Shown one piece after another: positions 1,454 to 18,724 of a stretch of 18,724 nt of DNA. Under the pieces are notes generated by a model. The model did not search any database and had not been told where the DNA came from. It was given only the letters and a program-made list of their open reading frames with translations. Where the stretch lies: IMG/VR virus record IMGVR_UViG_2734482772_000011, positions 1 through 18,724 of that record; one strand, written 5' to 3'. The position numbers and the translations under genes were made by a program. This stretch comes from a virus. Lineage: Duplodnaviria > Heunggongvirae > Uroviricota > Caudoviricetes. Position 1 is the stretch's first letter. Each line of letters starts with the position of its first letter.

Positions 1454-1485
1454 TCATTAAATGGACTTTGTGATTTGCAAAAAAA

Positions 1486-3021: not shown

Positions 3022-3026
3022 ATGTT

Positions 3027-3101: not shown

Positions 3102-3192
3102 AAATAAAAAAAGCCACCGTTGCAACTTAAGAGTCACTAACGGCATCTTATGCCAATAGTGTTGCTCATTTGCTCAATGATGTCAACACGTT
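3102..3192 (-). promoter_or_regulatory. late promoter region (pR-prime-like) downstream of Q
   Basis: Consensus -35 hexamer TTGACA on - strand (plus coords 3186-3181) right after the Q stop; no convincing -10 resolved by eye; position matches lambda pR-prime/qut. Confidence 0.3.
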
Positions 3193-3681
3193 CTATGCTA
3201 CATGTTTAATTTTCTCTACACGTTTCCGATTTTTAAACGCACTATCCAGAACCGGGTAAATCATAAACAACGAGGCATTAAGGATTTCGTCAACTTCCCG
3301 TCGACAGGTTGCGAGCGACGGTTTTTGAATGCGCCCGCCGCCACGGCATAACATCTTGCGAGGTCTTGCGACGCGATGATAGTAAGATGCAATGGCGTGC
3401 TTGGAAGAGCCATGAGCGTAGTAGCTGAGGAGGATTCCAAAGGCTTTCTTGTCAATGTACATGACGGAATCGACGACCTGAGAAATCAACATTCCATCAT
3501 CATCATTACACATTGGCCTTGTCATAACTCTTCCCGGCTCTACGCTCTCCATGAACTTCGCTATTACGCTGCTCATGCGCTTTTCCAGACGACCTGAATA
3601 AACCCATGCGCCCCACAGTTCAAGCCAGCCATTCAGCCACTCATGCTGTTCTTTGGTGAGGTTTAGTTCTCTTATGCCCAC
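3193..3681 (-). CDS. Q: late-gene antiterminator Q
   Basis: Track ORF 162 aa; Q-family hallmarks (LELWGAWV near N-terminus, Cys/Asp-rich central segment, SYYAHG); located between nin region and S. Confidence 0.8.
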
Positions 3682-4343
3682 GCGCCTTCTCCCTGTACCT
3701 GAATCAATGTGAGATTTCCGCAGAACACTGCCCCAGTATCGATATACATCTGGTTGGCAAATTTGAGTGGTTTCACTGCTGGCGTATGACCAAAGATAAA
3801 CGTGTCCGCGCCTTTAATTTCTTTAACGATCCCGTCTTGTGAGTTGCTGATTCGTTCGCGGTTCCAGATTACCTGCTGATGATCAACTGGCTTTCCAAAT
3901 TCGTATTCGTCACAAGGATAATCGGCGTGGCAGATGACATATTTTTTACCTTTGCTCACCAGTTCGATGATTAACGGAAGTTCTTCTGCTTTATGGGCAA
4001 GAGCTTTAGCCAGAATTTCTTTGTCGTAATCGAGATTAAAGAACCAGACACCGCCATTAAGCAGCCAGTGATTGACGTTTCCACGCTCTGATAAGCCATC
4101 AATCATCATGTGCTCATGGTTTCCACGTACAGCTCTGAACCAGGGGAATGTGATTAATTCCAGGCATTCAACGTTCTCTGCACCACGATCAACCAAATCG
4201 CCCACCGAGATAAGCAGGTCTTTTTTGTTGTCGAATCCAATCGTATCCAGTTTGTTCATCAGGTTCGTGTAGCATCCGTGCAGATCGCCAACTACCCAAA
4301 TATTTCGGTATTTGCTGCCATCAATTCTTTCGTAGATATTCAT
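3672..4343 (-). CDS. ninI: Ser/Thr protein phosphatase (lambda NinI/Orf221 type)
   Basis: Track ORF 223 aa; metallophosphatase motifs GDLHG, GDLVDRG, GNHE; position after ninG as in lambda. Confidence 0.9.
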
Positions 4344-4951
4344 GCAGCCTCACTTCTGCTGTTTCGCAGTTTTTTAAGTTTCTGTTGATACTCCGCCTTG
4401 ATGGCCCTGCACTCTTCGACAGTCCAGCGATGGCGGTTATGGTTTGATTCGATTTCGTCTACTGCTTCCTGCCCGATGCGGTTAATCAGTTCGACGCGAT
4501 ACGGAACGAGATTTCCGCTTTTATGTTGGTTGCACACCACGCATTGCTTGTGAATATTGCGTTCATCAAATCGGAGTTGAGGCGCCGCAGCAGTTGTCCG
4601 GTAATGCCCGGCATCCCACTGAGCAGACGTGAGCGTTCCGCACGAGATACATGGTAAGTCGCGGTCTCTTTCTCTGATGAAGGCGTTTACGGCTTGTTGG
4701 GCTTGTTTAATCCAGTAACTGCGGGGCTTTAAGGCGAGTTTTCGAATCTTAAGTTTATCTTTCTGTTTCTGCTCCTCTCGTCGTCGTTTCTTCTCTGCTG
4801 CCTTTTCCGCTTTTTCGCGTTCTTTGCTTCGTCGTTCGAGTGCTATCTTGGTTCCACACTCTGGAGAGCACCACCACTGATTGGCGAATGCAGGGTGAAA
4901 CCATTCCCGACATTCATCGTTTTTACATCGTCTTCGCGCTGGTTTAGCCAT
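4340..4951 (-). CDS. ninG: NinG (Rap) recombination protein
   Basis: Track ORF 203 aa; Cys-rich N-terminus ([12 protein letters not shown]...WWCSPECG) and lysine/glutamate-rich stretch typical of lambda NinG by recall. Confidence 0.9.
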
Positions 4952-5004
4952 CGTCTTCTTCCTCGTGCATCGAGCTATTCGGATCGCTCATCAGTTCTGC
5001 ACAG

Positions 5005-5511
5005 TTATGGTCTGCCATGGTTTTCATGAAAACCCAGTTCTTTTTCTGCCCTCTTCCTTTCTGCAATAGCGTCAATGATGCTAGCAAATATTCCAAGATA
5101 TTTGGTGCGCCCATCTACGCATATATTCGCAATCCACTTGCATCTCTCTTTATTGAAATACACTCCAGTCACTCCTGACGAATTGGTTATTTTTCTCTTT
5201 TGGTTCTGTGCATTCTGTTGGTGTGTAACCAATCGAAGATTAGATAGCCTATTATCTGACCTTACTCCATTTATATGATCAATTTTATACCCTAATGGAA
5301 TCTCACCATTATTTATCATCCATATAACGTGGTGAGCATAAGTAATTACACCATCGATAGTTAACATCCTATAACCATCACTCCTAATGTAACCAGCAAC
5401 ACTGCCAACCTTAACATTATTAGAAGGAGACACTTTCCATCTAAGTACACCTAAAACATCATCATATGATAATTTATTTCTTAATTCGTCTATGTTGCTT
5501 ATATTTCTCAT
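5005..5511 (-). CDS. HNH homing endonuclease with AP2-like DNA-binding domain
   Basis: Track ORF 168 aa; HNH_3-like segment (YKIDHINGVRSDNRLSNLRLVTHQQN) followed by AP2-like segment (SGVTGVYFNKERCKWIANICVDGRTKYLGIF); AT-rich by eye relative to flanking nin genes. Confidence 0.8.
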   Translation of the reverse strand: MRNISNIDELRNKLSYDDVLGVLRWKVSPSNNVKVGSVAGYIRSDGYRMLTIDGVITYAHHVIWMINNGEIPLGYKIDHINGVRSDNRLSNLRLVTHQQNAQNQKRKITNSSGVTGVYFNKERCKWIANICVDGRTKYLGIFASIIDAIAERKRAEKELGFHENHGRP

Positions 5512-5653
5512 TATGTTCCACCATATTTAAGCATTCATATATACAACGCTCACACACATGAACTTCCAGCACATGCAGCTTCTGACCGCAGTTAGCGCAC
5601 GTTAAAGCTCGCTCGACACTTCCTTGTTCGTAACTTCGATTTTGGTCAATCAC
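5474..5653 (-). CDS. ninF: NinF-like ORF with altered C-terminus (remnant at the junction with the HNH insert)
   Basis: Hand-translated, not in track: GTG at 5653-5651 overlaps ninE stop (GTGA); reads [59 protein letters not shown]; core [24 protein letters not shown] matches lambda NinF by recall; 3' end overlaps the HNH start by 38 nt. Confidence 0.45.
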
Positions 5654-5832
5654 CTTGTTTTCCTCGCACGTTCTCTAAGCCACCGGATATCCCACAGGTG
5701 AGCCGTGTAGTTGAAGGTTTTTACGTCAGATTCTTTTGGGATTGGCTTGCGTTTATTTCTGGAGCGTTTCGTTGGAAGGTATTTGCAGTTTTCGCAGATT
5801 ATGTCGGTGATACTTCGTCGCTGTCTCGCCAC
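5650..5832 (-). CDS. ninE: NinE
   Basis: Track ORF 60 aa, [23 protein letters not shown]... matches lambda NinE by recall. Confidence 0.9.
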
Positions 5833-5972
5833 ACGTCCTCCTTTTCCTGCGGTAGTGGTAACACCCCTGTTGGTGTTCTTTCACATCGGAGACACCATCG
5901 ATTCCAGTAAGGTTGATTTGGTCGGAAGCGGTTATCTTCTTTGCATTCACCGCACCGATAACATCGCATCAT
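5799..5972 (-). CDS. ninD: NinD (small Cys-rich protein)
   Basis: Within track ORF 5799..6032; start taken at [11 protein letters not shown] (ATG 5972-5970) which overlaps ninB stop as ATGA; Cys-x2-Cys pairs. Confidence 0.7.
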
Positions 5973-6409
5973 GCTGCCCGATCTCCCCATCTCGCTTTCC
6001 ACTCCAGAGCCAGTCGCGCTTCGTCTGACCACTTAACGCCACGCTCTGTACCGAATGCCTGTATAAGCTCTAATAGCTCCGCAAATTCGCTTACACGCAT
6101 CCTGCTGGTTGACTGGCCTATTACCACAAAGCCATTCCCGGCAAGGTTAGGAACAACGTCCTGCTGCTTTAATGCTGCGGTAAACACACACTTCCAGCTT
6201 TCTGCATCCAGCCAGCGACCATGCCATTCAACCTGACGAGAGACGTCACCAAGGCAAGCCCAAAGCTTTCGGTTTTGGTCTAAGCTGCGGTTGCGTTCCT
6301 GAATGGTTACTACGATTGGTTTGGTTGGGTCTGGAAGAATTTGCTGTACTGCGTGAATAGCGTTTTGCTGATGTGCTGGAGATCGAATTTCAAAGGTTAG
6401 TTTTTTCAT
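5969..6409 (-). CDS. ninB: NinB (Orf-family recombination mediator)
   Basis: Track ORF; start taken at [21 protein letters not shown] (ATG 6409-6407) with SD GAGGGA 5 nt upstream; matches lambda NinB by recall. Confidence 0.9.
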
Positions 6410-6422
6410 GACTTCCCTCTCC

Positions 6423-6457
6423 CCCAAATAAAAAGGCCTGCGATTACCAGCAGGCCT
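6423..6457 (-). terminator. intrinsic terminator between helicase and ninB (tR2 analog)
   Basis: 8-bp perfect stem AGGCCTGC/GCAGGCCT at 6434-6457, followed on the - strand by UUUUUAUUU. Confidence 0.6.
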
Positions 6458-6485
6458 GTTATTAGCTCAGTGATGTAGATGGTCA

Positions 6486-7922
6486 TCAGAATCCTCCTTT
6501 CTTCTTGGACTGCGGTTCCTCGCGTTCACGTCGGCGCATTTCAGCAGACTGTTGGTCTGTGTCATAAATAGCGCCATTTGCCTGAATGCAATACACCGTG
6601 CCGGTATTGCCATGACGATTGAGACGAAGGATTAGTTCAGTTTCACCAGGTGGAACACTGTCATCAAAAGCGCCTTCACGATGGATCCCGACCCAATAAT
6701 CGCAATCCTGTTCAATCTGCCCTGTATCTCGTGAGTCACTTGGTAATGGGCGTTTATTGGTTCTGCTTTCCAGTGCGCGGTTAAGCTGCGTCAGAAGCAC
6801 AACAACGCAATCAAGCTCTTTGGCAAGGTTCTTCAGTCCTTTGGTGATCATGCCGTAAGCAAGGTCGTTGCGATCGGCCTTCTCAGCGGTCATTAGTGTC
6901 AGGTAATCGACCAGAATCATGCCAACACATCCTTTTTCTCGCTTGATTCGACGGCTTTCGCTGACGATTTGAGCCAGAGATAATCCCGGCGTGTCGTCGA
7001 TGTAAAGCAGGTCTATTTCACTCAAGCGATTGGCTGTTTCTATCGCCCTGTTGAAGTCACCATCGTAATCACCCTGATAGCCGTCATCGGCGTCATTTGT
7101 CGCCGGAAGGTAAAAAATATTCGGGTTAACACCAGACTTCTGCCCTACCAGTTTTTCCAGTATCTGATCACCTGGCATTTCAAGGCTGAACATCAATGCG
7201 GGCTTTTTCTCATGCACTGCGCAATTGATTGCCATCTGGCTGTATAGCGTCGTTTTCCCCATCTTAGGGCGAGCGCCAATGACAAACAGAGAGCCTTTCA
7301 CCAGACCTTTCGGTGACAGCATCCTGTCCAGCGATGGGATCCCTGTGCTCATTCCCCGTTGTTCGCCTGACGGGTCAAATCGCTTCTCAAGGTCGCTAAC
7401 CCAGTCTTCCATGACCTCACCAAATGAGCGAAGGCCGCGACGCGATCCGGTTTTTGCATGGTCTGTCAGTTGCGTGAAAATCGACTGAATAGCTTCGTAC
7501 TTCTGCGTTGCAGTCATTCCGTTGCGGGAATAGAGCAATTCCGTCGCTTCAGTCATGCGGTTGATGGCGTAGCGTTCCATTGCGGTTTCGCGAACCTGCA
7601 TTGCATAAGCAACGATGTTTGCTGCGCTTGGCGTGTTCTTTGCGATCTCAGCGATATAAGCAAAACCGCCAACAGACGCCGTTAACGATTTACGCTCCAG
7701 TTCATCGAAAAGCGTCAGGCCATCTACTGGCTTTTGCTCACGGTGCATTCTGGTTATTTCTTCGAAAATGATTTTGTGTGGCCGGCTGTAAAATGAATCA
7801 GGCTTCAGCATCGCCAGAACCTTCTGGACGCGCTCACTGCTGTCATCATCCAGAAGCAATCCACCAATCACCGCCTGCTCTGCCTCGATGCTATGGGGCG
7901 GCGCATAAAAATTATCGGTCAT
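6486..7922 (-). CDS. replicative DNA helicase (DnaB family, P22 gene 12 type)
   Basis: Track ORF; Walker A GARPKMGKT, DnaB-like N-terminal segment SIEAEQAVIGGLLLD; ATG at 7922-7920 with SD GAGGGTG preferred over track GTG at 7937. Confidence 0.9.
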   Translation of the reverse strand: MTDNFYAPPHSIEAEQAVIGGLLLDDDSSERVQKVLAMLKPDSFYSRPHKIIFEEITRMHREQKPVDGLTLFDELERKSLTASVGGFAYIAEIAKNTPSAANIVAYAMQVRETAMERYAINRMTEATELLYSRNGMTATQKYEAIQSIFTQLTDHAKTGSRRGLRSFGEVMEDWVSDLEKRFDPSGEQRGMSTGIPSLDRMLSPKGLVKGSLFVIGARPKMGKTTLYSQMAINCAVHEKKPALMFSLEMPGDQILEKLVGQKSGVNPNIFYLPATNDADDGYQGDYDGDFNRAIETANRLSEIDLLYIDDTPGLSLAQIVSESRRIKREKGCVGMILVDYLTLMTAEKADRNDLAYGMITKGLKNLAKELDCVVVLLTQLNRALESRTNKRPLPSDSRDTGQIEQDCDYWVGIHREGAFDDSVPPGETELILRLNRHGNTGTVYCIQANGAIYDTDQQSAEMRRREREEPQSKKKGGF

Positions 7923-8811
7923 CGTGTTCACCCTCACGAACTTTCAGGTAGGTATTATCGTTAAGCAGGAAATCAAATCCCTTTTTGTGCCAGACAGTTC
8001 CGCGTTGATGGTTTGGACGCTCTTCGAACATCCATCGGCAATTTTCGCCTACGTAGCTCAAATAATTTCTCCAGTCCTGCATCGTGAACCCATGCCCGTC
8101 AAGCTGGCGGGTTATCACTCCGGCTTTGCGCCAGAACGTTCGGATCTGGTTTTTACGCTTGTCATTCAGTGCGCGGATTCTTGGAGCTTCAGGAAGGATT
8201 TCGTGGTAAGCATCGACAACATCCTGACAGCTGACGGAAGGTTTTTTCTTGTCAGACTTTTTGTCTGCTGTGGCACTCTCTAATACGTCAGTATTAGAGA
8301 TAATATTATTATATTCTTTATCTGTGGTAATTTGCTGGTAATCTGCTGGTACAGCATTGCTTACAGGCATTGGTATTGCTGGCTTTGAGGTGGTAATTTG
8401 CTGGTAATCTGCTGGTACAAAATTTGACTGATAATCGTCATATTTCTCTACTGAGAAAACTGAGAATTTACCGTGTGAAACCCAGTCAATCATGCCGAGT
8501 TTTTTGAACTTTCTAAGCAGGTACTGAACGCGATCTGGTTTGAGTCCTGTTTCAAACGCCAGAGAGTTTCTACCGCCAAGTAGCTTCCCTCTGCCTACCA
8601 GAATTTCTCCTGCGTCAGTCATTACATACTCAGGCGTATGCTTTGCTTTGAGGATTAAGTGAACCCACAGATGCGCTGCTTCTGCATCCTTGTAAAACGG
8701 CACATCCATAATTTTACGGTGCAGCAAGGCATACCCCTTACCGCTGCTTTGATGCGGTTGTTGTAGCCTTCTGGCCTCTCTGGCTTCGGCTAGATTAGAT
8801 ATGTTACTCAT
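7912..8811 (-). CDS. replication initiation protein (O-like)
   Basis: Track ORF 299 aa directly upstream of the helicase, downstream of cII; contains tandem peptide repeat [10 protein letters not shown] encoded by the iteron array, as in lambda O. Confidence 0.75.
8324..8419. repeat. origin-like iteron array inside the O-like gene, flanked by an AT-rich tract (8281-8320)
   Basis: Exact 30-bp direct repeat GTGGTAATTTGCTGGTAATCTGCTGGTACA at 8324-8353 and 8390-8419; each holds two TGCTGGTA sub-repeats 11 bp apart. Confidence 0.6.
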
Positions 8812-8950
8812 GACCTTTCTCCTTCTGCATCAGCTTCACTTTTTCCAACTCAGCCCGGAATCGACCAGGCTGCTTGAAGCTGGACAGGAAGCGATCACGT
8901 AGTATGTGTTTGTGAATTTTGTCCTGGTAAGGACTGAGTTGTTTTGTCAT
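8804..8950 (-). CDS. small hypothetical protein (48 aa) between cII and O
   Basis: Hand-translated, not in track: [48 protein letters not shown]; SD AGGAG 5 nt upstream of ATG 8950-8948; stop overlaps O start. Confidence 0.4.
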
Positions 8951-8982
8951 AATTACTCCTGTGGATTGATCCAGTAATTCCC

Positions 8983-9279
8983 TCAGAATTGCATATCAAT
9001 TTGCTTAGAGTCCCCGGCGGCCACCGGGGATTTTTTCTTTGTGATTCCATCAAGCGCATACTTAAAAGCCCTACTAATCGGACTGATGTCTGATGCCATT
9101 CCGAAAGCACACAAGACTGAAGCAATAAATCTCCAGTCCGTTCTGCTTATCTTCGATTCATGACAGCCAATCATCTTTGCCAGACCGCGCTGAGTAAGCG
9201 TTGACAGGTTGATAAGTAAATCTGTTTCTGCGCGATCAACGTCGCGCTGTGATAGTTTGCTGTAACTTGTTCGTTCCAT
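8983..9279 (-). CDS. cII: CII-like transcriptional activator
   Basis: Track ORF 98 aa; HTH region and C-terminus [18 protein letters not shown] resembling lambda CII (KKRPAATERSEQIQMEF) by recall; position between cro and O. Confidence 0.75.
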
Positions 9280-9364
9280 TTCTTAAGATTTCCAATAGTG
9301 AATAGCTAGTTGAAAGGTATGCGTGGAAACGCATATGGCCTTAGTTGGTCAAATATCTTGGAAC

Positions 9365-9410
9365 TCGCTTTTCAGCGACGTAGGACGAATGTCCGTTGTT
9401 ACAAAGAGCG
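9365..9410 (-). promoter_or_regulatory. nutR (boxA + boxB)
   Basis: On - strand: boxA CGCUCUUUGUAACAA (9410-9396), then boxB hairpin UCGCU-GAAA-AGCGA (9378-9365); same architecture as the nutL candidate. Confidence 0.55.
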
Positions 9411-9420
9411 GCTCCGCTTA

Positions 9421-9636
9421 TTAAGCGGCTTTGTGTTCCGGCGGGAACACGTCATCAAGACTTACTTTTGCGCCTAACTTATTTAGGCACGCAACAAGAG
9501 CACGGCATGTTTTAAGGTCTGGGAAGCGACGACCAGATTCCCAATGTCCGATAGCTCCCTGTGTGCATCCAACTGCCTTAGCAAGTGTTGTTTGAGAGAT
9601 ATTCAGTGACTCTCGATATTTTCGTAGGTTGCTCAT
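9421..9636 (-). CDS. cro: Cro-like repressor (HTH_XRE)
   Basis: Track ORF; start at MSNLRKYRESL (ATG 9636-9634) with SD GGAGG 5 nt upstream; HTH ISQTTLAKAVGCTQGAIGHWESG; divergent from cI. Confidence 0.75.
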   Translation of the reverse strand: MSNLRKYRESLNISQTTLAKAVGCTQGAIGHWESGRRFPDLKTCRALVACLNKLGAKVSLDDVFPPEHKAA

Positions 9637-9752
9637 ATGCCCTCCATAGTAACCTCGAATAAAAAATACAATATGTACTTTCCAAATACAAGCAAAAATA
9701 CACATTGTGCATGGATGGTTCCAGTACAGAGCGTAATAATAAGGACATGAAA
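9637..9752. promoter_or_regulatory. OR region (divergent PR/PRM with operator sites)
   Basis: Intergenic between divergent cro and cI; near-palindromic sites TACAATATGTAC (9667-9678) and TACACATTGTGC (9699-9710); the first recurs near pL. Confidence 0.6.
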
Positions 9753-10406
9753 ATGAAATGGTATGAACTGGCTAGATCCAGAATGAAAGAGCTCGGCATA
9801 ACTCAAGAGAAGTTAGCCGAAGAGCTAGGTATGACGCAGGGTGGGATTGGACACTGGTTGCGCGGATCTCGTCATCCATCTCTTAGTGATATTGGTGTGG
9901 TGTTTAAATACCTTGGTATTGATAACATATCATTCAACCACGACGGGACATTTTCACCTGTTGGCGAATACTCATCGGCCCCAGTTAAAAAACAATATGA
10001 GTACCCTGTATTTTCTCATGTTCAGGCTGGGATGTTCTCTCCAGAACTCAGAACCTTTACCAAAGGCGATGCGGAGAGATTGGTAAGCACAACCAAAAAA
10101 GCCAGTGACTCTGCATTCTGGCTTGAGGTTGAAGGTAACTCAATGACCGCACCAACAGGTTCCAAACCCAGTTTTCCTGACGGGATGTTAATTCTGGTTG
10201 ACCCTGAGCAAGCTGTTGAGCCCGGCGATTTCTGCATAGCCAGACTTGGTGGTGATGAATTTACCTTCAAGAAACTGATCAGGGATAGCGGTCAGGTGTT
10301 TTTACAACCACTAAACCCACAGTACCCAATGATCCCATGCAATGAGAGTTGTTCCGTTGTGGGGAAAGTTATCGCCAGCCAGTGGCCTGAAGAGACGTTT
10401 GGGTGA
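9753..10406 (+). CDS. cI: CI repressor (HTH + LexA/S24-like autopeptidase)
   Basis: Track ORF; start at ATG 9753 (SD AAGGA 7 nt upstream); N-terminal HTH ([20 protein letters not shown]), C-terminal S24 motifs (GNSM ... FKKL). Confidence 0.9.
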
Positions 10407-10472
10407 TATATGTGAAATGCATATATTGATATAAATGCAGCAATATCAAATAGTTAAAAGGTTATATTTTTA

Positions 10473-10853
10473 ATGAATGATCTTGATAAGAAAAAGTACG
10501 ACCAAGTTATTGATTCTGTGAACTTCGCCCTTAGATCGTTGTCAGAGTTATTCGAAGCCCATGGAATGCATGGGATGTATGATCTAACGAATCCAAGCCT
10601 TGATGAGCTAAAATTAGTGTTTACAAGGATGAAAAACGGTGTTGACTCTATTGCTCAAAGCTTTGAGCACATGGTAGAGACAGCAAAGGATATGGATGCC
10701 GCAAGTGCAAGCATAAATGTTATGAACATCAAACAAGGATTGATGTATGCTGAATCACTATTGCTTGCTGTAGAGAAATTAGACTATGATAAATGTGTGG
10801 AAGCAAATACGCAGATAAAAACCCACGATCTTCCACCAACCCAATGGCCTTAA
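10473..10853 (+). CDS. hypothetical protein, AT-rich accessory gene in the rexA position
   Basis: Track ORF 126 aa co-oriented with and downstream of cI; A/T-rich codons by eye; acidic, no obvious TM segment; no family recognised. Confidence 0.6.
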   Translation: MNDLDKKKYDQVIDSVNFALRSLSELFEAHGMHGMYDLTNPSLDELKLVFTRMKNGVDSIAQSFEHMVETAKDMDAASASINVMNIKQGLMYAESLLLAVEKLDYDKCVEANTQIKTHDLPPTQWP

Positions 10854-10921
10854 TAGTAAATCAAGATTTCATATAGTCTATTTGAACTAGGCTAGTACCA
10901 TAAAATAAACCGAGGAAACGC

Positions 10922-11023
10922 AATGAAAACCATGTCTACTCTGCACAAAGATGCAATGACCCTGAGATCTCTCATTAACGAGATTCTGGCTCGCTCGTCA
11001 GCACACACCAAAAAAGCCGCATA
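10922..11023 (+). CDS. small peptide ORF (33 aa)
   Basis: Hand-translated: MKTMSTLHKDAMTLRSLINEILARSSAHTKKAA; SD GAGG 7 nt upstream; followed 11 nt later by an intrinsic terminator. Confidence 0.35.
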
Positions 11024-11034
11024 ATGCCTACATA

Positions 11035-11060
11035 ACCCGGCCTCAGCGCCGGGTTTTCTT
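11035..11060 (+). terminator. intrinsic terminator ending the cI operon (tImm analog)
   Basis: CCCGGC-CTCAGC-GCCGGG hairpin followed by TTTTCTTT. Confidence 0.7.
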
Positions 11061-11245
11061 TGCCTCACCCCCCACCTAAAGACACATAACCAAATGTATT
11101 TATTGAAAAATAAATAGATACAACTCACTAAACCACGCAATTCTGATCTCTCCTTACATCGCCGAGGCGATACACCCACGCTAAAAAACAACACTATTAA
11201 ATACAAAGTGTTATAAAAAATCACCCCATTTTAGAACAAATCGTA

Positions 11246-11274
11246 TTGACCCAATAAAGTACATATCGTACTAT
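11246..11274 (+). promoter_or_regulatory. pL-like promoter with overlapping operator
   Basis: -35 TTGACC (11246-11251), 17-nt spacer, -10 TACTAT (11269-11274); revcomp of 11259-11270 is TACGATATGTAC, 11/12 identical to OR site 9667-9678. Confidence 0.5.
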
Positions 11275-11319
11275 TTAACCGTCAGCAGGACGCTGGAAGC
11301 CAAACGGAACAGACTGGCA

Positions 11320-11366
11320 GGCTCTTTAAACAACGTCGAACTCTCGACTACGTGGCTGAAAAGCCA
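11320..11366 (+). promoter_or_regulatory. nutL (boxA + boxB)
   Basis: boxA GGCTCTTTAAACAA (11320-11333) then boxB hairpin TGGCT-GAAA-AGCCA (11353-11366), about 100 nt upstream of the N start. Confidence 0.6.
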
Positions 11367-11464
11367 GATCACCCAACCACATGAGCTGTGGGATGCAATG
11401 CCGAAGCAACCGTCTCAGGAGGAGCTTCGAGATTGCATCACCAAAGTTTATTCGGGAGGAATCT

Positions 11465-11787
11465 ATGTCCAGAAAAACAGAATTTAAAGGCACCTCAGCT
11501 TCTCGTCGTAGAGCTCGTCGCGCAAACCTGCAAAGTCAGGAGGCGATTAGCTCCGACAAGCTACACAGACCAACCCCCTCTCGAGTGGTCTTGCAATGCA
11601 AGCGCAAACCAGCAATGAGAGCAGAAGTAATAACACTGACAACGTTGACCAGAAAATATGAAGGCTCAACTTGTCTTCCAAATGTAGCTCTTTACGCGGC
11701 AGGCTACAGGAAATCAAAACAACTGACAGCAAGGTGACTTGTGTTGGTCGCCAGAAAATAAAATTAGGCAGCAAACCACTTATTTGA
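11465..11787 (+). pseudogene. N: N-like antiterminator interrupted by an apparent 1-bp deletion (or sequencing error)
   Basis: ATG 11465 (SD GGAGG) opens frame with arginine-rich motif TSASRRRARRANLQ and stops at TGA 11735-11737; the conserved N C-terminus VTCVGRQKIKLGSKPLI is in the -1 frame, ending at 11787; adding one A to the A4 run at 11716-11719 fuses them into a 107-aa protein. Confidence 0.6.
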
Positions 11788-11795
11788 GGTGATAT

Positions 11796-12245
11796 ATGGA
11801 AGAACAAGCAAACAAGATTCTCGTAGAACTATTGCAAAAAGCCAGTAATGGAATAGACGCGGCTGTTTCATTTAGCCAGGCACAGATTCCTGATGTTATC
11901 CATCAGTTGCTGCTATGGAATATGGTTGACAGTCTGATTAAAACATTAATAGCCATTCTAACAATCCCACTGGTTTTCTGGTTTATGAAGAAGCAGTGCC
12001 AAAGAGTTGAGATAGGTAAAATCGGTAATGAAGGATATTCATGGGAGAAGGGAAATCCCAAATACAGGCCGACAATGGTTTGGGATAGCAAAGGTGATAT
12101 TGATCTTCTTATCATGCCATTGGTTGGAGTTTTGACTCTGTGGGGGATTTTTATTATTGGTGCAGTAACCAATATGACTTGGTTAAAAATTTGGCTGGCC
12201 CCAAAGCTTTACCTTATCGAATATGCAGCATCATTGGTTAAGTAA
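11796..12245 (+). CDS. hypothetical two-TM membrane protein (sieB-position accessory gene)
   Basis: Track ORF 149 aa; SD GAGGTG upstream; two hydrophobic segments (LIKTLIAILTIPLVFWFM and LLIMPLVGVLTLWGIFIIGAV); AT-rich by eye; between N and tL1-like terminator. Confidence 0.6.
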   Translation: MEEQANKILVELLQKASNGIDAAVSFSQAQIPDVIHQLLLWNMVDSLIKTLIAILTIPLVFWFMKKQCQRVEIGKIGNEGYSWEKGNPKYRPTMVWDSKGDIDLLIMPLVGVLTLWGIFIIGAVTNMTWLKIWLAPKLYLIEYAASLVK

Positions 12246-12248
12246 TTT

Positions 12249-12274
12249 CAGGCCGCATAGTCGGCCTTTATTTT
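12249..12274 (+). terminator. intrinsic terminator (tL1 analog)
   Basis: AGGCCG-CATAGT-CGGCCT hairpin followed by TTATTTTT. Confidence 0.7.
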
Positions 12275-12394
12275 TGGCATAAACAACAGAATAAACACTG
12301 CACTGTGTATTCATTCCAACGAGTGAATACACGGAGCAATGTCGCTCGTAACTAAACAGGAGCCGACTTGTTCTGATTATTGGAAATCTTCTTT

Positions 12395-12418
12395 GCCCTC
12401 CAGTGTGAGGGCTTTTTT
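12395..12418 (+). terminator. intrinsic terminator (tL2 analog)
   Basis: GCCCTC-CAGTGT-GAGGGC hairpin followed by TTTTTT. Confidence 0.75.
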
Positions 12419-12484
12419 ATATGCATACCAATAACGCTTCACTCGAGGCGTTTTCGTTATGCAATCAAATATAAGGAGTTACCC

Positions 12485-12619
12485 ATGATGCACTTTCAGC
12501 TCGCGGGTAGCGGCGTCATGTCCGCTTTCTACCCGCACGAATCTGAATTATCACGCCGAGTTAAACAATTAATCAGAGCAGCAAAGAAACAACTGGAGGC
12601 GTTATGCGCAATGAAATAG
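12485..12619 (+). CDS. cIII: CIII-like protein (FtsH inhibitor)
   Basis: In-frame part of track ORF 12380..12619 downstream of the terminator; ATG 12485 with SD AAGGAG 6 nt upstream; AGSGVMSAFYPHESELSRRVKQLIRAAKKQL resembles the lambda CIII helix region by recall. Confidence 0.55.
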   Translation: MMHFQLAGSGVMSAFYPHESELSRRVKQLIRAAKKQLEALCAMK

Positions 12620-12756
12620 CCATTAATCACCAGATGCTTCGTGCTGCACAGAACAAAGCAGTAATAGCCCGATTTATTGGTGATTCAAAAATGTGGCTTG
12701 AAGCAAATAAAGCGATGAAATCAGCTATCAACCTTCCGTGGTATCGCAGGAAATGA
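12604..12756 (+). CDS. Kil-like small protein
   Basis: Hand-translated 50 aa: MRNEIAINHQMLRAAQNKAVIARFIGDSKMWLEANKAMKSAINLPWYRRK; start overlaps cIII end; FIGD.KM motif and position recall lambda Kil (low certainty). Confidence 0.4.
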   Translation: MRNEIAINHQMLRAAQNKAVIARFIGDSKMWLEANKAMKSAINLPWYRRK

Positions 12757-12837
12757 GTTTTACAGATAACTGGTCAGACGAAGAATTCATTCGTCAGATG
12801 AAAGAAATGCTCAATCAGCACAAAGAACAGGAGAAAG

Positions 12838-13149
12838 ATGATGATTCTGACTCTGAATGATAAGCGTGAAATATCGCAAATAATCGCAAGTTTTACTGAT
12901 GAAGATTACGAACGAATCAACAGTGAAGTTGATCGCCTCTGCAAACGTTGCGACCCAATAAGCGAAATGCTTCGCTCATATAAACCAGATGAACACACTA
13001 AGGACGCTATCGACTGGCTGGAAGATGATGACTGTAACTATCAGGAAAAAGCCGCTGAATGGTTCTGGGATGCAATAACCGAAAGAGTTAAGGCTGAATA
13101 TGCCTTCGCAATATTCAAACGCAGACACATTTTTGGAGAAGCTGCATGA
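12838..13149 (+). CDS. hypothetical protein upstream of recombinase
   Basis: Track ORF 103 aa, acidic, ends 4 bp into the RecT start; no family recognised. Confidence 0.5.
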   Translation: MMILTLNDKREISQIIASFTDEDYERINSEVDRLCKRCDPISEMLRSYKPDEHTKDAIDWLEDDDCNYQEKAAEWFWDAITERVKAEYAFAIFKRRHIFGEAA

Positions 13150-14057
13150 GCAATATCGTTGAATTCGTTAAACAGCAGGAGCAGTTATTCTGCGGAGCAT
13201 TGACTGAACAGACGGTGACATGGGCTAAGGAAAGCCAGTTTGCAATTCAGTATTTCCAGAAAAACGATTACCTGGCTAAAACAGCACTGGCAAATCCAAC
13301 CAGCGCACAGAACGCCATCATCAATGTTGCGGCGATCGGCATCACCTTAAACCCGGCCAGCAAACTGGCTTATCTGGTTCCGCGCGACGGCATGGTGTGC
13401 CTTGATATCAGTTATATGGGATTGCTCCATATTGCAATGGAGTCTGGTGTTATCTCATGGGGTCAGGCAAAACTTGTTCATGCTAACGATACCTATGAGT
13501 CAAACGGGCTTGATAAAGCACCAACCCATAAATACAACGCCTTCGGTGATCGTGGTGATATCGTTGGCGTTTACTGCACAGTTAAGACGCCAGCAGGTGA
13601 TTATCTAACGGAAGAGATGAGTCTGGCTGAAATTGAGGCTGTAAGGAAAACAAGCAAGGCGGCCTTCAGCGATAAAGGACCATGGGTAAATCACTGGAAT
13701 GAGATGGCGCGAAAGACGGTCGTAAAGCGTGCAAGCAAGTATTGGCCTAAGGCATCACGTCTTGATAGTGCTATTCACGTACTAAACGAAGAAGAAGGTG
13801 TGTGGACTGAACCAGTTATGCCGCACAAATCAGAGGAAGATATCCGCGAAGATGAACGGAAACGCCAGCAGGAAATAACGGATAAAGCACAACTTCTTTG
13901 TGATGAAATGGCTCAGGCAGAAAACATGGATGATTTGAAGCGATATTTTGCAGAAGCATATCGCCTGACATCTGGAATGAAATTGCAGCAGAACGTACAA
14001 GCCATTTACGCAGAATGCAAAGCGAAACTGGAGGTTGCCAGTGAGCAAACTGTATGA
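13146..14057 (+). CDS. recT: RecT-family single-strand annealing recombinase
   Basis: Track ORF 303 aa; segment KGPWVNHWNEMARKTVVKRASKYWP resembles the RecT core (GPWVTHWEEMAKKTAIRR) by recall. Confidence 0.8.
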   Translation: MSNIVEFVKQQEQLFCGALTEQTVTWAKESQFAIQYFQKNDYLAKTALANPTSAQNAIINVAAIGITLNPASKLAYLVPRDGMVCLDISYMGLLHIAMESGVISWGQAKLVHANDTYESNGLDKAPTHKYNAFGDRGDIVGVYCTVKTPAGDYLTEEMSLAEIEAVRKTSKAAFSDKGPWVNHWNEMARKTVVKRASKYWPKASRLDSAIHVLNEEEGVWTEPVMPHKSEEDIREDERKRQQEITDKAQLLCDEMAQAENMDDLKRYFAEAYRLTSGMKLQQNVQAIYAECKAKLEVASEQTV

Positions 14058-14523
14058 AATTGCCAATGAATACGCAAAGCTGATGGATTCAGATTTAGAA
14101 CCAGAGATGATTGCTGACACAATAGAAGGCATGGAAGGAGAATTTACCGATAAAATAGAGCAACTTCTTGCCATTATTAAAAATGAATCTGGTTATGCTG
14201 AATGCCTCAAGGAAGAGGCAAAGTCACTAAATGAACGAGCCGCAGTAATTCAAAATAAGATTGACAACATTATGGCGTATATAGCGTCATCGCTTGAAAT
14301 GGTTGGCAAGAAAAAGATTCGAGCAGGTATTCACCAGGTAACAATCCGCAAACCGTCAGAAACTGTAGAAATCATCGACTCAAGCGCCATTCCTCCTGAA
14401 TACGTTGAGTTTGAAACGACAATTAAAGCCGACAAGTTGGCAATCAAACACCAACTAAAAGCAGGAATAAATATCCCCGGCGCTCAACTCAAAGTTGGGA
14501 AACCTTCACTTCTTATCAAATAA
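14041..14523 (+). CDS. Gp157-family protein (Siphovirus Gp157-like)
   Basis: Track ORF; GTG 14041 with SD GGAGG 6 nt upstream preferred over track TTG 14035; family call from recalled pattern and recombinase adjacency, not verified. Confidence 0.5.
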   Translation: MSKLYEIANEYAKLMDSDLEPEMIADTIEGMEGEFTDKIEQLLAIIKNESGYAECLKEEAKSLNERAAVIQNKIDNIMAYIASSLEMVGKKKIRAGIHQVTIRKPSETVEIIDSSAIPPEYVEFETTIKADKLAIKHQLKAGINIPGAQLKVGKPSLLIK

Positions 14524-14534
14524 CGGTATCGCCT

Positions 14535-14849
14535 ATGAAAAAGACTCCATGGGAGAAATGGGAAGTCGATTTCTTACGCGAAGTAGCGGCGACAATGCCA
14601 GTTGAAGTTATCGCTGAAAAACTGGAAAGGACTGAAAAAGCAGTAATGGCGAAAGCAACAAGGATTGGCGCTGACATTGTTAGCCGACTTCGTGGAAGAC
14701 GATGGACAAGAGCCGAAGTATCACTTTTCGGTAAGTTCTCCGCAGAAGAAATAGCAATTGCAACCTGCCGCTCAATTTATTCAGTAAGAGCTATGCGATA
14801 CAAGCTAAAAAAACTCGATGAAGAAAGAGCAGGCATACGAATAAATTAA
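14535..14849 (+). CDS. hypothetical protein with internal tandem helical repeat
   Basis: Track ORF 104 aa; two ~35-aa repeats each starting with W and acidic residues (WEKWEVDFLREVAATMP... and WTRAEVSLFGKFSAEEIA...). Confidence 0.5.
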   Translation: MKKTPWEKWEVDFLREVAATMPVEVIAEKLERTEKAVMAKATRIGADIVSRLRGRRWTRAEVSLFGKFSAEEIAIATCRSIYSVRAMRYKLKKLDEERAGIRIN

Positions 14850-14865
14850 CATGGAGTAATTAACA

Positions 14866-15147
14866 ATGAAGCTAAACATAGACCTAGGCAAATATGTTAT
14901 TACCGGAACCAAACACGATCTGATTCTTAGCGAAAGAGGAATTCTCAAAGAAGGCGAGAATGCAGGGAAAGAAACACTAAGCCGTATCGGTTATTACAGC
15001 AAGTTTGAGCATCTGGTTAAAGAATTATGCAACCGTGAAATCCTGTTATCTCAGGCGCAGACGCTACAGGATATTCAGCAACATATCGAGACTTTAGGTG
15101 TGTCACTTAGCATGGCTGTTGACCAGTTCGTGGAGAGTAAATCATGA
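14866..15147 (+). CDS. hypothetical protein
   Basis: Track ORF 93 aa in a co-directional operon; no family recognised. Confidence 0.45.
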
Positions 15148-15311
15148 GAGGACTTGCATACAATCCCGGCATTCTTCCGGCAGAAATGATTATTCGTCAA
15201 CGCGTAAAGCCAATGCCATCGAGAGAGGAATTGCTTAAGAGAAAGAGTTTCGGTTCTGTTAATGACAACAAATATCTGAATGCGATGTGGCGTAAAGGAG
15301 GCAACCAGTGA
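15144..15311 (+). CDS. small hypothetical protein (55 aa)
   Basis: Hand-translated: ATG 15144 overlaps upstream stop (ATGA); [55 protein letters not shown]. Confidence 0.4.
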
Positions 15312-15562
15312 GTAATTCAGCACGACTACAGCTTGGTTTTTCACCGCTATCAAAAACTATCATGCTGGCAAAAATGCGCGATGTTGAAGGTGGACGTATG
15401 CGCGTTGGCAATGATCCAGGTCGTGATGTTACCAATGAGGCCGCTCAATTGGTGTGGCGACTGGTCATGGCTGAAGGTGGTGAGATAGTGTGGGAGCTGG
15501 ATGATGGTTCTCGCATGGTGTTGAAGGCAGAAAAGCAGGAGGCAACCAGTGAGCAAGATTGA
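15308..15562 (+). CDS. hypothetical protein
   Basis: Track ORF 84 aa; GTG start overlapping upstream stop (GTGA) with AGGAGG 6 nt upstream. Confidence 0.45.
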
Positions 15563-16211
15563 CTATCAGGCACTGCGTGAGTTAGCAAAACAGGCAACAC
15601 AGGGTGAATGGGTCGCATTTATTTCGCCGGGCAAATACGGCACGTACGCCGTACACACACCAGGTGATAATCATCACGGAGATATTGTCGACTGGCCAGG
15701 ATTCGACGAACAGAAAAACGCAGAGAACAACGCTCGTTATATCGCAGCTTTCAACCCTGAAGTAGTGCAGGCGCTGCTGGATGAACGGGAAAGAAACCAG
15801 CAATACATCAAATCACGCGACCAGGAGAACGAGGAAATTGCGCTAACGGTAGGGAAGCTGCGTGTTGAGCTGGAAGCCGCAGAGAAGCGCAACGCAAAAT
15901 TACAAAGCGAGAATGCATACATCCGCAACCGGTTCAAAGAACTGGACCTGTTAATCGGGAAAAACATTCTGGTCATGCAGGCTGCCATTATAGAATGGCA
16001 GGCAACTGGCGACGCTAAGAGCGGACTGGCATGGATTTATAACACACTGTTTGACCCAGGCGAATTGCCGGACGAATCTGAGAAAGATGCTCAGGCCTAC
16101 TTTAATCGCAAATATGCACCGATTGACGAAAAGCTTATGGAGCTTCACGAGTGGTTTTGGGAACAAAGTAAAGCCGAGCGCGCCGCTGGCATTCGCATCA
16201 AAGGAGAGTGA
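15549..16211 (+). CDS. Ead/Ea22-like protein
   Basis: Track ORF 220 aa; N-terminus [22 protein letters not shown] typical of the Ead/Ea22-like family by recall; coiled-coil-like middle. Confidence 0.7.
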   Translation: MSKIDYQALRELAKQATQGEWVAFISPGKYGTYAVHTPGDNHHGDIVDWPGFDEQKNAENNARYIAAFNPEVVQALLDERERNQQYIKSRDQENEEIALTVGKLRVELEAAEKRNAKLQSENAYIRNRFKELDLLIGKNILVMQAAIIEWQATGDAKSGLAWIYNTLFDPGELPDESEKDAQAYFNRKYAPIDEKLMELHEWFWEQSKAERAAGIRIKGE

Positions 16212-16212
16212 T

Positions 16213-16734
16213 ATGAGCACTATCACTAAAGAACGTATCGAATTGTTCATTAAAAATCCGCTTGAAAACGGACTTACCCGTGGCGAACAAATGGAACTGG
16301 CACGGATTGCACTGGCATCGCTGGAAGCCGAACCTGTAAGCCAAACTTACAAGTTTCCAGTTAATACACCTTGCCAGGATGCGCCAGCCCATATCTGGCT
16401 GCAAACGGCTGGAGTATGGCCAGAAGATGGCGAGTTAAGCGAATTAACGTGGTGCAGCCACAATCAGCACCATGATGACACGCTATTTGTTCGAGCTGAC
16501 CTTGTGAATGGCAACTCTCCGGTAACTCCGGATGGTTGGATAAGCTGTAGTGAGCGAATGCCGGAGAAATACGATTTCGATATCTGGGTATTCTCTCCAT
16601 CCAGAGGCGTTCTTGACGGGCTACAGTGGGATGGCTCGATGTTTACTGATGATGAATATCAGTTCGTTATTCATGACGCCACGCATTGGATGAGAAAAGC
16701 ATATCCAGCAGCACCGCAGCAGGATGGTGAATGA
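16213..16734 (+). CDS. DUF551-like protein
   Basis: In frame with track ORF 16051..16734; start taken at ATG 16213 (SD AAGGAG 6 nt upstream); C-terminal GWISCSERMPEKYDFDIWVF resembles DUF551 by recall. Confidence 0.6.
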   Translation: MSTITKERIELFIKNPLENGLTRGEQMELARIALASLEAEPVSQTYKFPVNTPCQDAPAHIWLQTAGVWPEDGELSELTWCSHNQHHDDTLFVRADLVNGNSPVTPDGWISCSERMPEKYDFDIWVFSPSRGVLDGLQWDGSMFTDDEYQFVIHDATHWMRKAYPAAPQQDGE

Positions 16735-16884
16735 TGCCGCCAGTTAAAGTTGTGATTATCACTTTGGTGATGATAGTGATTGCGAGAATCATGTCTGGTG
16801 AAGTTTGGTGGATATGGTAATGGCTAAGGCAGCAGCAGAGCGCAACTAACAATCCTCGCACTCGCGGGGATTTCTTTTATCTGA

Positions 16885-16910
16885 ACTCGCTACGGCGAGT
16901 TTTATTTTAT
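16885..16910 (+). terminator. intrinsic terminator
   Basis: ACTCGC-TACG-GCGAGT hairpin followed by TTTTATTTTA. Confidence 0.5.
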
Positions 16911-16921
16911 GGAGATGACAA

Positions 16922-17089
16922 ATGCACTTCCGAGTCACAGGTGAATGGAATGGAGAACCATTCAACAGAGTTATCGAAGCCGAGAACATCAGCGACTGCT
17001 ATGACCACTGGATGCTGTGGGCGCAGATAGCACATGCAGACGTAACCAACATTCGAATTGAAGAACTGAAAGAACACCAAGCCGCCTGA
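16922..17089 (+). CDS. small hypothetical protein (55 aa)
   Basis: Hand-translated: MHFRVTGEWNGEPFNRVIEAENISDCYDHWMLWAQIAHADVTNIRIEELKEHQAA; SD GGAG 7 nt upstream; flanked by two terminators. Confidence 0.45.
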   Translation: MHFRVTGEWNGEPFNRVIEAENISDCYDHWMLWAQIAHADVTNIRIEELKEHQAA

Positions 17090-17102
17090 TGGCGGTTTTT
17101 TG
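17080..17102 (+). terminator. intrinsic terminator
   Basis: CCGCC-TGAT-GGCGG hairpin followed by TTTTTTGG. Confidence 0.6.
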
Positions 17103-17112
17103 GGGGTAGTAG

Positions 17113-17328
17113 ATGGCTGCAATTCACATTATATCAATAACATGCAATGTAATTCAGATAGTTGCTTGCATTATCTTTGTTTTCTCAATCATTCGCTCCC
17201 GACGATATTCTCCAGCAATTAACCGACATCCTGCACAGGTTGAAGCAGTCAGGATGGCTATAGAGTTACGAAATGAGATGAATAAGGCATTAATGGAGAT
17301 GGAGAAACCATTCACTGACAAACATTAA
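17113..17328 (+). CDS. hypothetical small protein with hydrophobic N-terminus
   Basis: Track ORF 71 aa; hydrophobic IHIISITCNVIQIVACIIFVFSII segment then charged tail. Confidence 0.4.
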   Translation: MAAIHIISITCNVIQIVACIIFVFSIIRSRRYSPAINRHPAQVEAVRMAIELRNEMNKALMEMEKPFTDKH

Positions 17329-17454
17329 GAGTGGAAATAAAGAAATCACACCGCCTCACACTCGGTGAGGCCTGTTCATTGCTCAATGATATCCAGACCT
17401 ACCATCGCCGCATCAATGCGGCTTTTTCTTGCGTGTAATTGCGGAGACTTTGCG

Positions 17455-17673
17455 ATGTACTTGACACTTCAGGAGTGGAACGCTCGCCAGCGACGCCCAA
17501 GAAGCCTTGAAACAGTTCGTCGATGGGTGCGCGAATGCAGGATATTCCCTCCTCCGGTTAAGGATGGAAGAGAGTATCTGTTCCACGAATCAGCGGTAAA
17601 GGTTGACTTAAATCGACCAGTAACAGGTAGCCTTTTGAAGAGGATCAGAAATGGGAAGAAGGCGAAGTCATGA
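17455..17673 (+). CDS. xis: excisionase Xis
   Basis: Within track ORF 17365..17673; from ATG 17455 reads MYLTLQEWNARQRRPRSLETVRRWVRECRIFPPPVKDGREYLF..., matching lambda Xis by recall; 3' end overlaps int start. Confidence 0.9.
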   Translation: MYLTLQEWNARQRRPRSLETVRRWVRECRIFPPPVKDGREYLFHESAVKVDLNRPVTGSLLKRIRNGKKAKS

Positions 17674-18724
17674 GCGCCGGGATTTACCCCCTAACCTTTA
17701 TATAAGAAACAATGGATATTACTGCTACAGGGACCCAAGGACGGGTAAAGAGTTTGGATTAGGCCGAGACAGGAGGATAGCAATCACTGAAGCAATACAG
17801 GCCAATATTGAGTTACTCTCAGACAGCGGACGCAAATCACTAATAGACAGAATTAAAGGCGGTGACGCAATCACTCTTCATGTGTGGCTTGACCGATATG
17901 AAACAATCCTCACCGAAAGGGGGATCAGGCCGAAAACTCTACTCGACTACGCCAGCAAAATCAGGGCAATCCGAAGAAAATTGCCGGACAAACCGCTCAC
18001 TGACATATCAACGAAAGAAGTGGCAGCAATGCTAAACACCTACGTAGCAGAAGGTAAAGCAGCTTCCGCAAAATTAATCAGGTCAACCCTTGTTGACGTT
18101 TTTCGTGAAGCAATAGCCGAGGGGCATGTGGCAACGAATCCGGTAACGGCAACCCGTACAGCAAAGTCAGAAGTAAGGCGCTCAAGGCTGACAGCTAATG
18201 AGTATGTCGAGATTTACCATGCAGCCGAACCTCTCCCTATCTGGCTAAGACTGGCGATGGATTTGGCCGTCGTTACAGGGCAGAGAGTCGGCGATTTGTG
18301 CAGAATGAAATGGTCAGACATAAACGACAACCATCTTCACATTGAACAGAGTAAAACAGGGGCTAAACTCGCCATTCCGCTAACGCTAACGATTGACGCG
18401 CTCAATATCTCATTGGCTGATACACTACAGAAATGCAGGGAGGCCAGCAGCAGTGAAACTATAATCGCATCAAAGCATCACGATCCGCTTTCCCCGAAAA
18501 CAGTATCAAAGTATTTTACAAAGGCGAGAAATGCATCTGGACTCTCATTTGATGGAAACCCGCCAACATTCCATGAACTGCGTAGCCTGTCAGCGAGGCT
18601 ATACCGGAACCAGATTGGCGATAAGTTTGCTCAACGTCTTCTCGGGCATAAATCAGATTCAATGGCGGCGCGGTATAGGGACAGCCGTGGACGGGAATGG
18701 GACAAAATTGAAATCGACAAATGA
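17651..18724 (+). CDS. int: tyrosine integrase (lambda Int type)
   Basis: Track ORF 357 aa, MGRRRSHERRDLPPNLYIRNNGYYCYRDPRTGKEFGLGRDRRIAITEAIQANIEL... matches lambda Int by recall; gene ends at the window edge. Confidence 0.95.
   Translation: MGRRRSHERRDLPPNLYIRNNGYYCYRDPRTGKEFGLGRDRRIAITEAIQANIELLSDSGRKSLIDRIKGGDAITLHVWLDRYETILTERGIRPKTLLDYASKIRAIRRKLPDKPLTDISTKEVAAMLNTYVAEGKAASAKLIRSTLVDVFREAIAEGHVATNPVTATRTAKSEVRRSRLTANEYVEIYHAAEPLPIWLRLAMDLAVVTGQRVGDLCRMKWSDINDNHLHIEQSKTGAKLAIPLTLTIDALNISLADTLQKCREASSSETIIASKHHDPLSPKTVSKYFTKARNASGLSFDGNPPTFHELRSLSARLYRNQIGDKFAQRLLGHKSDSMAARYRDSRGREWDKIEIDK

Follow-up and report, generated by a model that had tools for sequence, protein, structure and literature searches.

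The lysis/lysogeny switches closest to the one described here are those of phage VT2-Sakai (AP000422) and of the Stx1-converting phage of strain Morioka V526 (AP005153), in whose GenBank records six 17-mers are each annotated as 'putative operator', together with pR, pRM, pL, nutL and nutR. The operator set reported below is therefore already known, in the form of GenBank predictions and not of mapped binding sites, and its rediscovery is confirmatory since the sites have been annotated in GenBank from the time of the VT2-Sakai and Stx1-phage records. Working from the GenBank sequences of the six VT2-Sakai operators, Sedhom and Solomon assayed lambda CI on them by EMSA and obtained micromolar, near-nonspecific affinities, about ten-fold weaker than those for lambda OR1 and OL1 (PMC9803871, PMC10742460). 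A search of the literature, which included the operator strings themselves, turned up neither footprinting nor EMSA data for the cognate CI or Cro. Operators of phages 933W and BAA2326 (O104:H4) were characterized by EMSA and footprinting in the Koudelka laboratory (PMC3317979, PMC5977221). These two phages also have lambdoid, Stx-phage-associated switches with three OR sites, but their operator sequences are unrelated to those described here and are backed by cognate binding data, whereas the present sites are predicted. OR1 of BAA2326, for example, is ATAACTGTGCGTAATG, and the sites of that phage are weakly symmetric (PMC5977221). The operators of phi1720a-02 were also compared and are likewise unrelated to the six sites.

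The window (the whole stretch of 18,724 nucleotides that was analyzed) represents a lambdoid early region, oriented opposite to the conventional map of lambda. The cro gene (9421–9636, stop codon included; minus strand), annotated as cro in VT2-Sakai, encodes an all-alpha protein of 71 amino acids with an HTH_3 domain (Pfam, E 4e-12), and beyond it lie cII, O, and P. On the plus strand, cI (9753–10406) encodes a protein of 217 amino acids possessing the Pfam domains HTH_3 and Peptidase_S24, its start codon being that of AP000422; an alternative ATG at position 9747 would add the residues MK. An earlier note on this DNA had described the gap between these genes as the cro-cI intergenic region, correctly so, given the HTH_3 gene on the minus strand and the HTH_3/Peptidase_S24 gene on the plus strand that flank it. 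The cI (pRM) transcription unit ends at an intrinsic terminator (11034–11055, plus strand) upstream of OL; AP000422 has a terminator at the corresponding place, and an open reading frame of 126 amino acids occurs between cI and the terminator of the window. Next comes a good sigma-70 promoter on the plus strand identified by consensus scan (11246–11274, TTGACC-17-TACTAT), which is the 'putative major leftward promoter' of AP000422. It feeds the gene of the N antiterminator (11465–11737, plus strand; 90 amino acids; Pfam N_peptide, E 1e-31), which heads the pL operon and whose translation is one residue apart from the N of VT2-Sakai. The term pL-like promoter used in the earlier note was thus also apt, and the repeat it had placed there does overlap the spacer and -10 element.

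The other two promoters of the switch were read from the sequence. We infer pR on the minus strand at 9663–9691, with a -35 element TTGTAT (9691–9686), a 17-bp spacer and a -10 element TATTTT (9668–9663), and pRM on the plus strand at 9712–9740, with a -35 element TGGATG, a 17-bp spacer and a -10 element AATAAT, its predicted start lying near the ATG at 9747. The hexamers of both are weak consensus matches that were not called by the consensus scan, and both promoters occupy the same places as the 'putative major rightward promoter' and the 'putative maintenance promoter for cI' of AP000422.

The cro-OR-cI segment (540 bp, from cro through OR into the 5' end of cI) is 98.0–98.5% identical to AP000422, AP000363, and AP005153, 100% identical to E212 and EC.P3, and 98–100% identical also to Stx2 II, 1717, 2851, Nil2, and YYZ-2008. 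Several non-Stx P22-like phages, E212 among them, belong to this set of matches. The six sites of the window were located by transfer of the GenBank 17-mer annotation; the three OR 17-mers and OL1 are identical to those of VT2-Sakai, and the spacing of the sites and the positions of pR, pRM, and pL are the same, whereas OL3 differs at two non-core positions and OL2 at one. The cargo between cI and OL also differs, with other genes in VT2-Sakai in place of the 126-amino-acid open reading frame, and the OL-OR distance is ~1.6 kb in the window as against ~2.3 kb in VT2-Sakai-type relatives. Elsewhere the window is a mosaic of another composition, and at most 67% of the window is covered by any one complete Escherichia coli genome. 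The near-identity of the cro-OR-cI segment and of the operators indicates immunity of the VT2-Sakai/Sp5 type, and not of the lambda, 434, P22, 933W, or BAA2326 type. This gives a name to the immunity specificity that the earlier note had expected the sites to define. Lambda immunity was rejected for the lack of any full or half site of the TATCACCGCCGGTGATA type in OR or OL and for a CI N-terminal domain that is only distantly similar, and 434 and P22 immunity were rejected when their operators (ACAA-N6-TTGT and ANTNAAG-N4-CTTNANT, respectively) both gave no match in the window.

The putative operators are six 17-bp sites of dyad symmetry with the consensus nAnTAC-N5-GTAnTn, three of them between cro and cI, within a gap of 116 bp, and three at pL. 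The OR1-like site AAATACAATATGTACTT (9664–9680) is closest to the consensus, covers the -10 element and spacer of pR, and is annotated as 'putative operator' in both AP000422 and AP005153. It is followed by the OR2-like site AAATACACATTGTGCAT (9696–9712), which has a weaker right half-site and is centered ~43 bp upstream from the start predicted for pRM, and by the OR3-like site CAGTACAGAGCGTAATA (9722–9738), which covers the spacer and -10 element of pRM. At the other control region are the OL3-like site AAATACAAAGTGTTATA (11199–11215), the OL2-like site TAGAACAAATCGTATTG (11232–11248), reaching into the start of the pL -35 element, and the OL1-like site AAGTACATATCGTACTA (11257–11273), covering the pL spacer and -10 element. 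Center-to-center distances are 32 and 26 bp in OR and 33 and 25 bp in OL. Each 17-mer has two-fold symmetry around its central base pair, with the five central bases free to vary. The consensus of the 12 half-sites is nAnTAC(A/G)n; all of them have A5 and C6, 11/12 have A2 and 9/12 have T4. With a position matrix, the pR and pL sites score best (18.8 and 17.9, respectively) and the pRM site scores lowest (14.0). The sites stand where repressor operators are to be expected, over elements of pL and of the predicted pR and pRM. Two further candidates were noted. The half-site AAATACAA (9684–9691), considered as an alternative register for OR2, was rejected, its partner half being poor and its position coinciding with the pR -35 element on the other strand. 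A weak seventh site, CATAACCAAATGTATTT (11085–11101), has one good half-site and the seventh-best matrix score in the window; it is present in L001–L003, carries no GenBank annotation and is of uncertain status.

The earlier note had drawn attention to four 12-bp near-palindromes, and all four were found at the positions it gave. These are TACAATATGTAC (9667–9678, plus strand) in the cro-cI intergenic region, which forms the core of the OR1-like site; GTACATATCGTA (11259–11270, plus strand; TACGATATGTAC on the minus strand), the core of the OL1-like site; TACACATTGTGC (9699–9710), the core of the OR2-like site; and TACAAAGTGTTA (11202–11213), contained in the OL3-like site as its core. Their symmetry is real, but the repeat unit is one of 17 bp and not 12, and they represent four of the six sites, the ones over pRM (9722–9738) and over the pL -35 element (11232–11248) having been missed. 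The exact motif TACRATATGTAC has two matches in the 18.7 kb, with 0.00 expected (0/200 shuffles), and TACRNNNYGTA has four in the window against 0.53 expected, three of the four falling inside the two control regions. The window has just three copies of the 8-base core NANTAC-N5-GTANTN, every one of them in OR or OL. With enrichment and clustering at the two control regions far above chance, the motif is not spread at a similar frequency throughout. A matrix was also built from the two strong sites only, those containing TACAATATGTAC and GTACATATCGTA, and used to rank ~18,700 positions. The remaining four annotated sites rank 3rd, 4th, 5th, and 7th, all within 75 bp of the strong sites. Scored singly, these four weaker sites fall within the range of the best matches in shuffled sequence, and their significance comes from their clustering and from the comparative data, not from individual scores.

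It is conceivable that only the four 12-bp near-palindromes are operators, two in each control region, and that 9722–9738 and 11232–11248 are left unbound. Both of these sites are among the weaker matches to the consensus, and some lambdoid phages do have fewer than six sites, 933W being said to have five (PMC10742460). Nevertheless, 9722–9738 carries the 8-base core exactly, and the two sites lie over pRM and the pL -35 element, where a third and a second site, respectively, would be expected. In all relatives that retain cI, moreover, they keep invariant cores and the fixed spacing of 26 and 25 bp, and conservation reaches positions 1–3 and 15–17, beyond a 12-bp core. A two-plus-two arrangement is consequently considered very improbable, and the six-site arrangement is preferred.

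Conservation was examined in 11 enteric sequences retaining cI (phage records and genome contigs), which are closely related and represent few independent lineages. Among these, none of the 48 core columns varies, compared with 11 of 54 at other operator positions and 28 of 50 in the spacers (Fisher p = 4e-11 for core against spacer and 7e-4 for core against other operator positions). Because the core columns had been chosen from the window, this cross-genome comparison is an independent test. It points to purifying selection on the operator cores relative to the surrounding intergenic DNA. The Klebsiella phage phiKp_30, by contrast with these cI-bearing sequences, has lost cI save for ~20 codons and has also lost OL3, and its remaining sites include core substitutions in OR2 (G12T), OR3 (T13C), and OL2 (A14G). 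Such changes are compatible with a relaxation of constraint as well as with selection to escape repression.

These data also bear on whether the repeats could be AT-rich elements associated with promoters (-10/-35-like or UP-like) or the product of chance, in place of operators specific to a protein. Several of the sites do overlap promoter hexamers, and the half-site at 9684–9691 is itself the pR -35 element when read on the other strand. Promoter composition or chance would not, though, account for dyad symmetry around a variable center, for the confinement of the exact core to OR and OL, or for a core that stays invariant while the spacers diverge. In addition, the motif and its spacing recur in Pseudomonas loci of 60% GC that have nothing but the recognition helix of the repressor in common with the window (see below). 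An origin of this kind is regarded as extremely improbable, and the reading of the repeats as operators is retained in what follows.

The proteins predicted to act at these sites were next compared with structurally characterized repressors. Over residues 82–217, CI matches the C-terminal domain of lambda CI almost completely in an alignment with PDB 3bdn/8gmu, and both the cleavage site and the catalytic Ser and Lys are conserved. The N-terminal domain is a distant match to that of lambda; it is ~15 residues shorter, lacks the N-terminal arm, and keeps the equivalents of Gln33 and Gln44 in its helix-turn-helix. Cro and this N-terminal domain share 35% identity (E 1e-12) and have near-identical recognition helices, that of Cro being TQGAIGHWESG. 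As homologous all-alpha helix-turn-helix proteins with near-identical recognition helices, CI and Cro could read one operator set, as in 434 and P22. The pairing of a CI and a Cro that are paralogous all-alpha helix-turn-helix proteins with similar recognition helices is a likeness to these two phages, and P22 C2 is a weak PDB match for the Cro of the window, although the operator is of 17 bp here rather than 14 or 18 bp.

If the sites were instead read by one regulator only (e.g., Cro), or by a different factor from phage or host, CI would have to bind elsewhere. There is a precedent for operators of that kind, the footprinted ones of BAA2326 being weakly symmetric and not obvious from sequence (PMC5977221). 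Against this stand the near-identity of the two recognition helices and the CI-like nature (HTH_3 and S24) of the Pseudomonas homologs that keep the motif. OR and OL show no further obvious repeated dyad. We regard a division of this kind between regulators as highly improbable and favor binding of both CI and Cro to the six sites.

A comparison with operators of repressors having a similar helix-turn-helix was made by scanning species-representative genomes, which yielded 76 loci of the Pseudomonas fluorescens group (60% GC) encoding a CI-like protein with HTH_3 and S24 domains. The N-terminal ~56 residues of these homologs are mostly 50–62% identical to the CI of the window, the few full-length matches being 38–43% identical, and they have the same recognition helix. 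When the window-derived matrix was applied to 1 kb on either side, the best matches fell at -84 (76/76 loci) and -51 (72/76) from the start codon. This spacing of 33 bp is also found in the window, a few loci add a site at -25, 26 bp further on, and there is an intragenic site at +243. At the -84 site, positions 2, 4, 5, 6, 12, 13, 14, and 16 are invariant or near-invariant (position 6 shows a single departure), and the five bases in the center are free to vary. Such a pattern is the footprint to be expected of a dimeric helix-turn-helix operator and would tie the motif to the recognition helix. Hence, similar-HTH repressors in Pseudomonas keep both the motif and the 33-bp spacing. The Pseudomonas gene is a chromosomal, non-prophage, LexA-like regulator that is divergent from a DUF6124/DUF3077 gene and occurs in at least 76 genomes. 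Its identification with AlpR was considered and dropped, since no operator sequence for AlpR appears in the AlpA paper and no link between the two was found.

Taken with the invariant cores and the helix shared by CI and Cro, the conserved geometry in Pseudomonas supports the proposal of the earlier note that the sites are repressor operators. It is very probable, judging from these comparisons, that the six 17-mers are the CI/Cro operators of a lambda-like lysis/lysogeny switch of the VT2-Sakai (Sp5) type. By analogy with lambda, 434, and P22, CI dimers would be expected to bind first to the best-matching sites, 9664–9680 at pR and 11257–11273 at pL, by which transcription of cro and N would be turned off. 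From the middle OR site (9696–9712), CI may activate transcription of cI, and the weakest site (9722–9738), inside pRM, would allow negative autoregulation at high CI levels; the latter is also the likely preferred target of Cro. Upon RecA-stimulated self-cleavage of CI, Cro could then take over the same sites. The lambda-type C-terminal domain could allow pairwise cooperativity as well as OL-OR looping across the ~1.6 kb.

The layout resembles that of lambda in having six 17-bp pseudo-symmetric operators, three in OR and three in OL, with the best-matching sites over pL and the predicted pR and the poorest match over the predicted pRM. Positions A2, A5, and C6 of the half-site are common to the TATCAC of lambda, to which can be added the near-identical C-terminal domain of CI, and lambda CI activates pRM from about the same position as that of the middle OR site here. 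One difference that stands out is in spacing. Lambda sites are spaced at 24 and 23 bp in OR and at 24 and 20 bp in OL, compared with 32/26 and 33/25 bp in the window, such that OR1 and OR2 are separated by three helical turns instead of ~2.3. Given an OR1-OR2 distance of 32 bp against 24 bp in lambda, lambda-like cooperativity is not to be assumed. OR2 in the window, unlike that of lambda, also leaves the pR -35 element uncovered, and the Cro encoded there does not have the lambda-Cro fold but is all-alpha, of HTH_3 type, and related to the CI of the same switch.

One possible, though on balance unlikely, explanation of these features is that the helix-turn-helix/operator cassette is an old portable module with its own geometry, and that the CI of the E. 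coli phages is a chimera of this module with the oligomerization/cleavage domain of lambda. The geometry in question is the three-turn separation of OR1 and OR2 with the pR -35 element uncovered. If this were true, such a module joined to a C-terminal domain identical to that of lambda would imply a cooperative geometry unlike the 24-bp arrangement of lambda. The invariant cores, the natural cI-less operator variant of phiKp_30 and the Pseudomonas homologs provide precise targets for CI/Cro biochemistry.

An operator set determines which phages are excluded by a lysogen and how tightly the prophage is maintained. The Stx2 phage of O157:H7 Sakai has the present immunity type, as do many other Stx1 and Stx2 phages, and the parameters of this switch therefore bear on Shiga-toxin induction. 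The VT2-Sakai/Sp5 immunity type was found in 565 of 5,426 complete E. coli genomes.

The operator clusters between cro and cI (OR) and at pL upstream of N (OL) are spaced as direct copies of each other and not as mirror images, with the arrangement a-33-b-25/26-c on the plus strand for both (window 9696-9740 versus 11232-11274). It therefore follows that pL (11246-11274, plus strand) is placed relative to OL2 (11232-11248) and OL1 (11257-11273) almost exactly as the predicted pRM (9712-9740, plus strand) is relative to OR2 (9696-9712) and OR3 (9722-9738). Given this near-equal placement of the two promoters, the choice between repression and activation would be set by how strong site c is; OL1 is a strong site and OR3 a weak one.

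The match to the window-derived operator matrix ranked seventh in the window was CATAACCAAATGTATTT (11085-11101), in which one half-site is perfect. It lies approximately 114 bp upstream of OL3 (11199-11215), right after the terminator (11034-11055, plus strand). Conservation of this sequence extends to VT2-Sakai, the Stx1 phage and E212; lineages in which the gap between cI and OL is short lack it. The match may be an accessory site or may have arisen by chance.

In the position of rexAB, between cI and OL, an ORF of 126 aa occupies 10473-10853 (plus strand), and a promoter-like site is located at 10426-10454. A Pfam search with this ORF returned no match, its sole match being PHROG 16322, a family of unknown function. 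The cargo carried between cI and OL varies among phages of the same immunity, with E212 possessing an 858-bp gene and VT2-Sakai other ORFs. The 126-aa ORF may represent a moron or defence gene that is expressed in the lysogen.

Derivatives of this immunity region with deletions in cI were found in two phages, both isolated from sewage, namely Klebsiella phage phiKp_30 (locus L007, 930-1200) and Escherichia phage EC.P3 (locus L008, 1959-2422). In phiKp_30, nearly all of cI and also OL3 are gone, and OR2, OR3 and OL2 carry mutations in the conserved half-site positions that are reminiscent of lambda vir. In EC.P3, approximately 400 bp are deleted inside cI and the operators are intact.

This cI and operator region of E. 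coli phages was also identified, with 93-100% protein identity, on two metagenome contigs binned as Bacteroidota ('Segatella copri' MAG, L009, JAJXBQ010000280.1) and Bacillota ('Bacillota bacterium' MAG, L011, JAEZIN010000021.1). Most likely both contigs come from enterobacterial phages and were mis-binned. The window taken whole (1-18724) is a mosaic, of which at most 67% is covered by any one complete E. coli genome; the OR segment by itself occurs in about 10% of complete E. coli genomes.

Chromosomes of the Pseudomonas fluorescens group (loci L012-L088) encode a conserved, stand-alone LexA-like regulator whose recognition helix is the same as in the CI of the window; its gene is located among housekeeping genes and is divergent from a DUF6124/DUF3077 gene. 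These loci possess the operator motif of the window together with the 33-bp spacing, with sites at about -84, -51 and +243 relative to the ATG of the regulator. The last of these is a perfect operator-like palindrome, AAGTACAACCCGTACTT, within the coding sequence of the regulator itself, where it codes for KYNPYF. It is present at +243 in 68 of 76 loci, the remainder having similar sites at +246 or +261. Coincidence in the codons could account for it, or it could be an operator within the gene.

Directly after the stop codon of N (11465-11737, plus strand), the DNA at 11734-11787 codes in a different frame for VTCVGRQKIKLGSKPLI and a stop. The encoded peptide is the C-terminal end of N proteins of the lambda/21 type, as they occur in phages vB_EcoP-683R2 and Louie, and the stretch looks like a recombination scar of an N-gene swap.
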